A stretch of DNA of 64,000 bases from Alloascoidea hylecoeti. Its lineage: Eukaryota. The translations under genes and the position numbers were made by a program. Where the stretch lies: positions 957,566 through 1,021,565 of the forward strand of contig BCKZ01000004.1 in NCBI GenBank assembly GCA_001600815.1, written 5' to 3'. Positions 43,472 to 48,600 of the stretch are shown piece by piece. The notes beneath the pieces were generated by a model that saw only the letters and a program-made list of their open reading frames with translations, had not been told where the DNA came from and ran no database searches. Every line of letters starts with the position of its first letter. Position 1 is the stretch's first letter.

Positions 43472-44607
43472 TTATTGGTTCCATCCGTTATTCCAGTTCC
43501 CATTTTGCTGATTGAAGTTATTGTTGAAATTATTAAACCCTTGCTGCTGTGGTTGTTGGTTCATTCTATTGTTCCGATTATTATTATTGCCGTTATTGTT
43601 GTTACCTCCATTTTGTGGAAAGTTTGGCATTCCAAAATTGTTGTTATCTCCTTGTTGACCATTGAACATTCCCATATTCATCTGATTTATGGCGCTAGCG
43701 GGCCCAGTTGGAGCTCCCATGCCTGGTGGAGCTCCCATGCCTGGTGGAGCTCCCATACCTGGAGGTCCATTGTTATTACCACTGGAGTACATATCAACAT
43801 TCATCATGTCATCAGCATGAGGCATTCCATTTGGAGGGGGAGGGAAACCATTCATACCCATCATTGTCGGCGGAAACATACCTGGCATCCCCATAGGACC
43901 CATTCCAACCATCATCTGTTGCATTAAGGTTTGTGGGTTGAAATCATCTCTAGTCTTATCTTGTTTGGCACAATAGGCTGTCCATGTGAAGTCATCAAAA
44001 CCATAATTAAAATAATCTGTTACATCAGCACCAGGTTTTCGCCATGGTTTATCTTCAAAAGATTCCAGTTCAACCTCAGTTATAGGTTTACCTTCATATT
44101 CGCCTATTTTGTCAATATCTATTGTTGGAACATTTATTGTCGAACCAGGTGTAGATTCTTTGGGTTTCTCTATATCTTCTTCTTCTTTTGTCGTGGTCTG
44201 CCTTCGTATTGAAGAATAAGGTGTGTGTTTTGCAGGTGCCTCAACTTTCTGTCCTGGGAGTGGTTCAATAATAAATTCAACATCTGAATCTGAACCCTCA
44301 TCGTCGTCACCTTCTTCATCATCATCGCTGTTATCCTCATTACTTTCATTTTCTCCAACTTTATTCTTCTCAGTGTTGTTTTTTTCTATATGTTTTGAAG
44401 GTTCCTCCTTATCTGATTCACCGTAAAGTTCATCTTCATCAATATCATCTAAATTCAAATTGAAAACGTTAGAAACAAATATTTAATCAATTAATATAAT
44501 TAAATATATATATGTATAGACCTACCCTCTAGCACCTTTTGTCGTTTTGAGCTCGGTTCATCGGACGCATAAAGAAACTCATCATCTTCATCTTCATGGT
44601 TTGTCAT
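43472..44607 (-). CDS. FIP1: Pre-mRNA 3'-processing factor Fip1, 352 aa; exons 44607-44526 and 44448-43472
   Basis: Fip1 motif '[29 protein letters not shown]' and 'DSDVEFII'. Intron 44525-44449 (GTAGGT...TCTAAC...TAG). Confidence 0.94.
43709..43766 (-). repeat. 18-nt tandem repeat x3 encoding (PPGMGA)n in FIP1
   Basis: ggagctcccatgcctggt repeated on + strand. Confidence 0.9.
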
Positions 44608-44702
44608 TTTCGAACAATCTTAAAGATTTTGCTTTAAGCTTAGTAGAAATGAGGTGAAGCAGAAAAATGAATGTACGGATGTAATGAATATAAGATTCGT
44701 TG

Positions 44703-44717
44703 TAGGGTTTAGCCCTA
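44703..44717. promoter_or_regulatory. Inverted TAGGG-N5-CCCTA element (Tbf1-like) in the FIP1/RPL43 divergent promoter
   Basis: tagggtttagcccta; resembles the paired Tbf1 sites of Candida ribosomal-protein promoters. Confidence 0.45.
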
Positions 44718-44855
44718 TTATATTTTAATTCCCAATATGGGAATAGCAGTCATTGCATGCTCTAAGTATATTCTGGAATGACTAGATTCTGTATTTCGAT
44801 TAAACTATTACCAATTTCAACACAAATATTTTGACATTAATAGTTAACACAAGAG

Positions 44856-45150
44856 GTATGTTTAAAAGTAACCACGAGTAGAAGTTTGTGACAGGAGAAT
44901 GCAACAGGATATTCTAAATTCAATCAAAATGCTCTTATCAGTTAAAAGGGGTGAATATGTAAATTGACGAATGATTAAATGTGTTTTCCAAGTCTGGTGA
45001 ACAAGAATATTCAACAGTACTTGTCAATTATAAAAAATTCAAAGATGATATAAAAGTTCATATGATTTTGCAGAATATCCTTTGTTGTACTTGTCTATAA
45101 TCTCAACTTTTTATTTAATTATGGCTGGAAGCTAACATTTATATTTTTAG
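44856..45150 (+). other. Putative 5'UTR intron of RPL43 (295 nt)
   Basis: Donor AG|GTATGT at 44856, branch GCTAAC at 45131, acceptor TTTTAG at 45150, followed by a 9-nt exon ending in the AT of the start codon. Confidence 0.7.
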
Positions 45151-45157
45151 ATCAAAA

Positions 45158-45618
45158 ATGTAAGTTACAAGCGAAGATTATGAAACTGAGAAACATAATT
45201 CAACACTCTGAAACTCGAAACTTTACCCAAGAATTCAATAATAATCTTTTAATCAACATTTACTAATAAGTTAACAATAGGACAAAAAGAACTAAGAAGG
45301 TCGGAATCACAGGTAAATACGGTGTCAGATACGGTTCATCCCTTCGTCGTCAATGTAAGAAACTTGAAATTCAACAACATTCTCGATACACATGTCCTTT
45401 CTGTGGTAAGAAGACCGTTCAGAGAGTTGCTACTGGTATCTGGAACTGTAAGGGTTGTAACAGACAATTAGCTGGAGGTGCATATGCTTTTGCGTAAGTA
45501 TATTTTATTATGATATTATGTCAAGCTTGTGAATTGTTTCTAACTGTCTTTTAGTACACCTGCTGCCCTCACTGCTAGATCAACCATTAGACGTCTAAGA
45601 GATCTTGCTGAAGCATAA
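45158..45618 (+). CDS. RPL43: 60S ribosomal protein eL43, 92 aa; coding exons 45158-45159, 45281-45493, 45555-45618 (absent from ORF track)
   Basis: AT|G split start; '[25 protein letters not shown]...CPFCGK...GIWNCKGC...[26 protein letters not shown]'. Introns 45160-45280 and 45494-45554 (both GTAAGT...TAG). Confidence 0.97.
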
Positions 45619-45619
45619 A

Positions 45620-48600
45620 CAAAATTTTCAGAAATATAACCCTACTATTTAAAGTCTAATATACTTGTAATATTTATCTTTGGCATAAATAATTAATGAT
45701 TCGTATGACTAAATGTGTGGAATAGTAGAAATTATAATTGTAAAGTTTTCAAGAGATCGAGCGGTATTGGTTAAGTATTTACTATATACTCGGATCTAAA
45801 TAGAGGCCGTTGATTTTATACATGAATATTCGCGACTACTGTGTAAAAAATCAGGTGAGTATAAGTAAGGAGCTGATCATAATTTCTTTCTCATGATATA
45901 TTAAGAGATTAAGCCAACGTGAATTGCAACGTGTACCATAAAGGATACAAGGTTTCTAATAACTGAGGTCAGAGGACCTGAGGTTAATACTAATTAGAGT
46001 ATTGGTATATAATCAGGCTCATTAAATTGAAAAGATTCTTTAAAAATGTATCGAGATCGGGAGTAGTAAGTACTGCACTGCGGCTCAAAAATTAAGTTGC
46101 AGGTGTCAATCACTATCAAATATAATTAAGCTTGTTACTCTCGAGCTCATTCCTAACTGATAACTATTAACATGGCCATGGAGGATGGTACTTTGTAGGG
46201 CCGTATATCTATACTGCAGCTACATATTAATATATCGGTATAAGCTTATAGTTGATTATTTATATATAAATCGATGATGATTATTTATAATTAGTAGTAT
46301 CGCACTGTATAATTACCTAATAACAAATATGTTGTGACACACAGAGGGAGTACTGGTAGCAATATATAGGCTATAATATAATGGATCTGAAAACAAATAC
46401 AAGTACACCTTTCGATTTTCATAAACAAATAGCTGTAATTTTAAAGCTCATGAGAGGGAGGTGCTTCTGCTGTCACAATTAGAGTAAGTATCCTATTTTC
46501 CGAACAGTTTCTTTTATCTAGGCTATGGTCATTGACACTGTTATAGCAAGGTTACAGGGTAATAATACGGGTACACTACAGCTAGCAAGTACTAGAATAT
46601 TAATTAATACCATGATCGTTATATTATATAAACGTTAAAACTAACTATTAAATATAATGCTAGTTTATAATTAGGGAGTGAATTTTAAATTGTTAATCTA
46701 CAAGATGTAGACATTCGATGATAAAAGCAGCCGATTTTAATGAAACTATATGTTATTAATAACCGTAAGATTTTGTTAATTTATACTTATAAGATATTAA
46801 ACTTTTCAGATAGCTCTAATTCCATACACATGACCACTTATAATTATGAATAAATTGGTTACGAAATGATTTATAGCTATAGATATTGATCTATATTAGA
46901 CCTCGAGTTCGTATAGCATTATATACTTTATATATTCATAGCGCTGTAAATAAGTTTAGGGTATATATAGAAAACAATACCATCAAATATGTTTTTATTA
47001 TTTCCAAGTATTATAAGTTCAAAGTTATGATTAAGCAATTAATTATACCTATTGCAAATATTATTCTGATCGGATAATATGCTCTTAAACTTTAAGATCT
47101 CACGATCGATTATATTGGTGAAGTGATATCAAATAGTATAAGTTATACCTTTTGCGCAATATATTATTTGTTAAGCTGTATATGTGTACGCAGAAAGTTA
47201 GTCTTCGGTATATTTTTTTAGATCTGTCATCAACACATTGAAAACTCGGATTTATTTTATTTAAATTTCATATTTATATATATTTCATTATTGATGCTTA
47301 TAGTAAAATTTTAATATTAATATTCATATAGATAGTTATGTTCATATTCATGGCGCGCTCGCGATTGTATACACTAATGAATCTTAAATATATTCATTTA
47401 TCATTTTAAAAGTAGATATTCACATTTGTAATCTGGCCGTTATAATTAAATGTAGATCTATATTCAGTGGTATAATAAATATTTATATAATTAAGCTTAA
47501 GCCTAATCGATCGGCAAGACTGTTATTTATAATCAATAATCATATTTTAGTAATTTGTTTTCATATATACTTATTAGAAAGAATATAAATATATAAGCAT
47601 ATACATATAGGATGTTATATATGATGTGAAAACTTATCGTTGTATATGATTTACATATAATATGATATACATATAATTAATATTAATATATGAAACGACA
47701 CATGTAAATTATGTCTTAACTCTCAGAAATATTGCTATTAACGTATGGTAAATAAATAATAAAACTCAATCAAACTGTAAGATTTCCTTCAACTAAAGTC
47801 CATAGTGATCATAAACATATATGTATTTTTACGGTATTAATGTATATCTAATGACTAAGAGAGCCGTTCTACGGATCTTTCGGACTTCTGACAATCTTAT
47901 AGAAACTACTTATCTTAAATGAGTCAATGAAGTTGACTTTAAATGCTAGTATATATAACAATAATAAGGTATATTTATACAGTTTGTATGGTAATATAAA
48001 ATATATATTTAATCTTGGTATAGGCTATATTGGCTAAATACATATCGGGGGTTTAAATTTTTTGCTGAAACATATATTGTCAGCCAAATAAATATGTTAT
48101 AACTATAGTTTAAAAGTGTTATTAGTCGATATATTGTTGATAATTAGCCAGAAAAATTAAAAAAGCGGTAGATTTTTTTTAGAAGTACTTGAAAGGTCTG
48201 TAACTATTAACTAGTTAGCTGAAGATACTTTCATTCATTGCTAATTGATTTTTGAAAGTATCTGCAATTGATGAAATTAAATTTAAATATATGTAAACTA
48301 ATAAACTTATATTTGGTAAAAAAAAGTGATAGAGTGCTATCACTGAGTTAAACCTGGTACTCACTTGCAGAGTAGTTAATACGGCTTCAAGTATTCGTTA
48401 TCTTAACCAATTGAGGATATAAACTTGCAATTTTTTAAAGGTTATATTTTAGTCGGCTATTAAGCTTAAATAATCTTACATCGATATGAAAAAATATGAG
48501 TTATTTCGGAATATTTGCACAAGACCAATGCAGTAGTGCATATGCATACCAATTTAAGTAATTAATATTACCTTATATGTTAACTAATTAAAATATCACA

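Follow-up and report, generated by a model that had tools for sequence, protein, structure and literature searches.

A predicted zipper stem in the putative leader intron of an RPL43 gene

The putative 295-nt leader intron of the eL43 (RPL43) gene described here contains a basal long-range stem, which in the folding models is the only non-random structural feature of this intron. The stem satisfies the positional rule that was established for zipper stems in S.cerevisiae, and only few shuffled sequences or genomic windows match it under this rule. We infer that the leader is transcribed and spliced and that the stem draws the ends of the intron together and thereby promotes its splicing, i. 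e. that it is a zipper stem. We put the probability of this interpretation at about 0.5.

A possible mechanism is the following. The stem would form in the pre-mRNA and would bring U1, at the 5' splice site, and U2, at the branch point, effectively closer to each other. The shorter distance would help an intron of 295 nt to be spliced in a genome where the usual introns are much smaller. This genome is an AT-rich, budding-yeast-like one, with usual introns of about 60 nt.

The eL43 gene and its leader intron

The window, that is the whole stretch of 64,000 nt that was analysed, encodes eL43 (RPL43) on the + strand around 44856..45150. Exon 2 scored 111.3 bits against the Pfam family PF01780 (Ribosomal_L37ae), for which the cut-off is 21.9, and hence belongs to this family. 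The start codon is split by an intron: the bases AT lie at 45158-59, the intron extends to the TAG at 45278-80 and the G follows from 45281. An intron at this position was located in all ten yeast-like loci of the metagenome scan that is described below. Judged from its signals, 44856-45150 most likely represents a spliceosomal intron of the eL43 leader, which is followed by a micro-exon of 9 nt and then by the start-codon-splitting intron. The coordinates of all features are given in table 1.

Table 1. Features of the eL43 gene and of its putative leader intron (positions in the window)
Feature	Positions	Strand	Basis or remark
Putative 295-nt intron in the 5'UTR of eL43 (GTATGT ... AGCTAAC ... 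TAG)	44856..45150	+	sequence signals
5' splice site GTATGT	44856..44861	+	sequence
5' arm of the basal long-range (zipper) stem	44886..44915	+	pair probability 0.85-1.0; three G.U wobbles on this strand
Inner hairpin domain with AATTGAC/GTCAATT closing stem, 68 nt	44962..45029	+	-12.9 kcal/mol, z -1.18
Apical hairpin, AGUC loop 44991-44994	44982..45003	+	8 pairs, one U.U mismatch
3' arm of the basal long-range (zipper) stem	45072..45100	+	two-strand fold -24.0 kcal/mol
Hairpin bridging the micro-exon (marginal)	45101..45192	+	branch point 1 paired with 5' splice site 2
Branch-point motif AGCTAAC	45130..45136	+	branch A 45135, 15 nt before the 3' splice site
3' splice site TAG	45148..45150	+	sequence; end 8 nt before ATG
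Micro-exon ATCAAAAAT, 9 nt, holding the first two bases of the start codon	45151..45159	+	sequence
Start-codon-splitting intron, 121 nt (GTAAGT ... TACTAAT ... TAG)	45160..45280	+	sequence, pattern scan
Exon 2 of eL43	45281..45493	+	translation; Pfam Ribosomal_L37ae, E 2.4e-32
Third intron, 61 nt	45494..45554	+	sequence signals, pattern scan
Exon 3 of eL43, ending at the stop codon	45555..45618	+	translation

A preliminary description of this DNA had proposed a 295-nt intron in the RPL43 leader, and GTATGT, AGCTAAC and TAG are present at 44856, 45130-36 and 45148-50. The hexamer GTATGT also opens six of the nine long RPL43 introns that were obtained from yeast-like loci. When the 550-nt intergenic region was shuffled, a full splice signal (GTAWGT...CTAAC...YAG) that ends at most 60 nt from the ATG arose in 20 of 5000 cases. 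This number rose to 92 of 5000 with CTAAY instead of CTAAC, and it fell to 4 of 5000 if no more than 10 nt were allowed between the end of the signal and the ATG. A looser intron pattern gave about 13 long spurious matches in 128 kb, several of them within ORFs. Since such long spurious matches occur in the window, the splice signal alone is not proof of an intron. The leader intron gains independent support from the position of the basal stem. A look for RNA reads over 44600-45700 brought up none, and three metatranscriptome runs of one study gave none either. Altogether, we consider 44856..45150 very probably a real intron.

The base preceding CTAA varies among the other candidate introns of the window, and thus the GCTAAC branch motif need not be weak. 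For the other introns, the preliminary description had given lengths of 50-121 nt; the other short intron candidates of the pattern scan have this size range.

With a real leader intron, only 9 nt would be left as the exon between the two introns, and the branch point of intron 1 would be 25 nt away from the 5' splice site of intron 2. This spacing suggests that the two introns would have to be removed in order. Skipping of the micro-exon would yield a transcript without a start codon. Two introns that are parted by a 9-nt micro-exon with two bases of the start codon would be a small curiosity. In two loci from the same metagenome, L002 and L003, the 5' exons end in the same nine bases as the micro-exon (ATCAAAAAT). 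The start context of these two loci is identical (ATCAAAAATG); the start-codon intron has 524 nt in one and 112 nt in the other, and both carry ACGATTACC together with a long pyrimidine tract about 40-60 nt before the ATG.

Ahead of the putative first exon, at 44669-44681 and 44704-44719, there are a string reminiscent of the Rap1/RPG box in ribosomal-protein promoters of yeast and an inverted pair of TTAGGG-type sites, which look Tbf1-like. Similar paired sites are found 200-400 nt before the ATG in L003, L005, L010 and L012. The string GAATATTC was considered as an enriched DNA motif and discarded (4 matches, 3.1 expected). The divergent neighbour on the - strand contains a Fip1 motif. In a gene model made by eye, this neighbour has an apparent intron after about 27 codons (window 44536-44449, - strand) with GTAGGT as the 5' site and TTCTAAC as the branch motif.

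On the 3' side of RPL43, about 2 kb (45700-47700) contain no ORF of at least 60 aa. The pattern scan gave two long matches there that look like introns (46066-46344 and 46484-46663). At 46272-46279, a GATGATGA string comes with a weak, sub-threshold Rfam match to the box C/D family snoZ7 (20.2 bits, gathering score 43, E 3). The window region 45700-47700 may be non-coding or a snoRNA host region. A tRNA search found none.

Folding of the leader intron and of related RPL43 introns

The preliminary description had proposed a series of nested stems in the intron. All of them were recovered at their positions and are part of both the MFE and the centroid structure, but only the basal stem exceeds chance. 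In the partition function of the 295 nt, GACAGG/CTTGTC pairs with a probability of 0.85-0.87 and CAAC/GTTG with 0.96-0.97. The segments AGGATATTCT (44906-15) and AGAATATCCT (45072-81) form a perfect inverted repeat of 10 bp, in which nine of the ten pairs reach 0.89-1.0. The corresponding values are 0.75-0.96 for six of the seven pairs of AATTGAC/GTCAATT and 0.76-0.93 for the apical stem; the terminal pairs of the stems are weaker (0.47-0.52).

The total folding energy of the intron is ordinary. With an MFE of -53.5, compared to -51.7+-4.4 for shuffled sequences (z -0.42), it was equalled by 60 of 200 shuffles, and holding the splice signals fixed in the shuffles gave a z of -0.49. The preliminary description had named an energy not superior to that of shuffled controls as refuting its proposal, and this is the outcome for the intron as a whole. 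Likewise, 35.6% of 1098 genomic windows of 295 nt fold as well as the intron. The interior (44930-45060) showed a z of +0.48 against its shuffles and the 34-nt stretch around the apical hairpin a z of -1.73. The inner hairpin domain was matched by 24 of 200 shuffles, and thus is not beyond chance. In the MFE structure the branch point lies at a graph distance of 17 from the 5' splice site (shuffles: 18.9+-11). As this distance is equally short in 45% of the shuffles, the predicted compaction as such is not special. We take the inner branches and the AGUC hairpin of the predicted fold to be incidental.

The basal stem comprises 22 pairs in the two-strand fold (-24.0 kcal/mol) and 26 pairs in the fold of the whole intron. 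When its 5' arm was barred from pairing, the MFE rose from -53.5 to -34.1. In a fold of 560 nt of pre-mRNA the stem stays at a probability of 0.9-1.0. It is more stable on the + strand than on the - strand (-24.0 and -18.4 kcal/mol, a difference of 5.6) because of the three G.U pairs.

By definition, at least 10 nt separate the 5' splice site from the start of a zipper stem, and its end is followed by at least 20 nt up to the branch point (PMC12350175). Its total linker is 42-85 nt, and it counts no fewer than 6 bp and no more than 5 bulged nt (PMC12350175). The definition also calls for a high helix confidence from in-vivo probing and for a stability above that of matched controls (PMC12350175); the pair probabilities of 0.85-1.0 given here are thermodynamic ones. 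The basal stem opens at position 31-35 of the intron and leaves 35-40 nt to the branch A at 45135, and its total linker is 64-73 nt, depending on which outermost pair is counted; both values lie within the rule. With at most 5 bulged nt the stem has 17 bp, an energy of -12.7 kcal/mol and a linker of 64.

Under this rule, the stem was matched by 7 of 500 shuffles and by 8 of 666 genomic windows, in a search that tried every starting pair. An earlier, greedier routine, whose outcome depended on the order in which helices were built, found 6 of 500 shuffles and 22 of 1098 genomic windows as good. When 6 or 8 bulged nt were allowed, a limit picked after the stem had been seen, the stem extended to 22-26 bp (-22.8/-24.0 kcal/mol), and this was reached by none of the 500 shuffles and none of the 666 windows.

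A hairpin that bridges the micro-exon was also considered. In this hairpin AGCUAACAUUU, the branch point of intron 1, pairs with AAAUGUAAGUU, which contains the start codon and the 5' splice site of intron 2. Its predicted pairs reach 0.73-0.94 and its z is -2.24, with 5 of 200 plain shuffles as good. Once the splice signals were fixed, 53 of 1000 controls folded as well and 70 of 1000 paired as strongly. The signal is partly due to the generic complementarity of CUAAC and GUAAG. The hairpin is thus marginal and was dropped as a significant element.

To compare the intron with those of other yeasts, a metagenome scan was queried with exon 2 of eL43. It yielded 80 loci (best protein identity 79%), ten of which are yeast-like. 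An orthologous 5'UTR intron was found in none of the 80 loci, the ten yeast-like ones included. Nine long start-codon-splitting RPL43 introns (272-686 nt) from the yeast-like loci were examined for a stem in the MFE structure. By the same rule, seven of the nine have a zipper stem, compared to 84 of 780 of their shuffles. In five of these seven, at most one of 100 shuffles was as good (0/100 each for L005, L009, L010 and L015, 1/100 for L014). L002 was equalled by 2 of 60 shuffles, and the stem of L012 is weak (11/100). The long introns of L001 and L008 are without a zipper stem by the rule.

The whole-intron z values of the nine related introns range from -2.5 to +0.8. In the predicted structures these introns match the pattern found here: their total energy is ordinary, and the stem in zipper position is extraordinary. 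In S.cerevisiae, RPL43A is listed with hasZipper = 1 and RPL43B with hasZipper = 0 (Fig. 5 source data, PMC12350175). The absence of a zipper in L001, L008 and RPL43B speaks against the zipper interpretation, as does the finding that the whole intron is no more stable than its shuffles. If the interpretation is nevertheless correct, the zipper feature would accompany the long 5' intron of RPL43 also where this intron sits in the leader and not in the start codon. In practice, a z-score of the whole-intron energy misses structures of this kind, and a position-aware test finds them.

Alternative interpretations

A real intron with a neutral inverted repeat, i. e. a young palindrome or an insertion scar without effect on splicing, is conceivable, though we consider it doubtful. 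This would agree with the shuffle-like values of both the whole-intron energy and the distance from 5' splice site to branch point. Moreover, about 1-2% of arbitrary genomic windows bear an equally good stem in zipper position, and the present one was noticed by eye among 64 kb. However, the stem lies within narrow positional limits of splice signals that were recognised independently of it, and the same feature is found in seven of the nine related RPL43 introns. Nor was a repeated element detected in the leader intron: when the intron was compared by blastn with the window and with the 80 loci, no second copy appeared, only chance words of 11-16 nt. Another possibility is that 44856..45150 is not an intron but promoter DNA of RPL43, with transcription starting at about 45100-45140 and with the splice signals and the palindrome being coincidence or DNA motifs. 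Two TATA-consensus strings, which lie 110-130 nt ahead of the ATG (about 45029 and 45049), would fit such a promoter, and a micro-exon of 9 nt is unusual. None of the ten yeast-like loci has a 5'UTR intron, and in L003 the TTAGGG-type sites are about 400 nt away from the ATG, with no intron in between. Yet a promoter would require the full splice signal to have arisen by chance (20/5000) and, in register with it, a stem this good (chance about 1%). The G.U pairs favour an RNA of the + strand, and an unspliced transcript starting upstream of 45122 would be left with an upstream ATG in its leader. Hence we regard the promoter as an unlikely explanation.

Other interpretations assign a different function to the structure. 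As in RPL7B, excess eL43 could bind an alternative fold and dissolve the zipper stem or stabilise the bridging hairpin, by which productive splicing would be blocked. Precedents for such a switch are RPL7B (PMC12311795) as well as RPL18B and RPS22B (PMC13232506). The 3' arm does have alternative partners at 44764-78 and 45003-12, and the pair probabilities of the micro-exon hairpin are 0.73-0.94. Nevertheless the alternative pairings are negligible in the ensemble, and the hairpin becomes marginal when the signals are fixed (53 and 70 of 1000). No conserved protein-binding element was identified in the eL43 leader intron, and a literature search for RPL43 leader introns, intron structure or autoregulation found no report that was relevant by its title. 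A switch of this kind is quite unlikely. In a more specific version, the zipper stem and the bridging hairpin would together act as the switch: when the stem is dissolved or the hairpin stabilised, e. g. by excess eL43, the micro-exon would be skipped or the introns retained and the start codon lost. This would be autoregulation at the level of the start codon by micro-exon choice, which we consider very unlikely.

Rnt1 (RNase III) substrates lie in the RPS22B and RPL18A introns. These have in common with the eL43 leader intron a hairpin with an AGNN tetraloop inside a ribosomal-protein intron, and the preliminary description had interpreted the apical hairpin as of the Rnt1 type. In this case Rnt1 would enter at the AGUC-capped hairpin and degrade unspliced pre-mRNA or the lariat. 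The loop is present at 44991-44994 on a stem of nine positions with one U.U mismatch. Its closing pairs A-U (p 0.78) and C-G (p 0.97) qualify it as an AGNN tetraloop. The tetraloops that Rnt1 recognises are of the form A/UGNN; it cleaves double-stranded RNA at distances of 14 nt upstream and 16 nt downstream of the loop, and some of its in-vivo substrates have bulged or complex stems (PMC13183374). Here, however, the 8 pairs and the U.U mismatch give way to a 4x4 internal loop (-10 to -13), and double strand does not continue to the cleavage sites. The pairs at -14/-15 have a p of about 0.33, -16 is unpaired, and by symmetry of the fold +16 on the 3' side is a single unpaired base between a 2-bp and a 3-bp segment; such short segments at cleavage distance are weak (p 0.33-0.62). 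Unlike in RPS22B and RPL18A, the helix thus stops short of -14/+16, and for this reason we do not class the hairpin as an Rnt1 substrate. Furthermore, its stem has only -6.4 kcal/mol, and the two strands, 128 kb in total, contain 18 AGNN-capped 9-bp hairpins when one mismatch is tolerated, i. e. 0.041 per 295 nt. RPL43 is absent from the main text of the PARE study (PMC13183374). Degradation by Rnt1 therefore appears highly improbable, and the earlier functional interpretation as a whole is only partly supported. It had also included an RNA hosted by the intron and a search of the Infernal/snoscan type as a way to find it. Long ribosomal-protein introns of yeasts do host snoRNAs, and a snoRNA or other structured RNA could be located in this one. 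The search was negative: no Rfam family matched the intron at E<=10, nor did any reach its gathering score across the window. Heuristics for both snoRNA classes were negative as well. The + strand of the intron contains no CTGA and no exact C box (C-box matches occur only with mismatch), and the sole H/ACA layout uses the branch point as ACA. Together with the z of +0.48 of the interior, this makes a hosted RNA hardly credible.

Comparison with known intron structures

Intron-based autoregulation of ribosomal-protein genes is known from RPL30, RPS14B, RPL22B and RPS9. As in the eL43 gene, a structured intron is located near the 5' end of a ribosomal-protein gene in these cases. Autoregulation through introns also occurs in RPL18B, RPL28 and RPS22B (PMC13232506).

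The zipper interpretation, which we prefer, can be compared with well described cases. In the first intron of RPL7B, the zipper stem is a structural splicing enhancer, and an alternative structure is bound by Rpl7 (PMC12311795). The eL43 leader intron resembles it in its predicted zipper stem and in a branch motif with G in front of CUAAC (UGCUAAC in RPL7B, AGCUAAC in eL43; PMC12311795). In contrast, the alternative structure and the binding of Rpl7 are features of RPL7B (PMC12311795), of which none was identified in the eL43 intron. A zipper does not necessarily act in the same way in every intron: zipper variants of RPL28 lowered the amount of retained intron, and zipper stems do not always promote splicing (PMC12350175).

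The closest likeness is to the S.cerevisiae zipper stems of RPS17B, RPL7A, RPS11A and RPL43A, which obey the same rule for position and linker as the stem described here (PMC12350175). In these introns, too, the stem beats the shuffles and the whole intron does not (PMC12350175). The eL43 case differs from them in that the usual introns here are of about 60 nt and in that the stem is a predicted one. RPL43A, with its zipper intron, belongs to the same gene family as the eL43 gene (PMC12350175). The basal stem would accordingly be a further example of the known class of zipper stems and as such of low to moderate interest. What sets it apart from a zipper of the RPL43A type is its placement: the intron that contains it is a separate one in the leader, and the short start-codon-splitting intron follows 9 nt further downstream.
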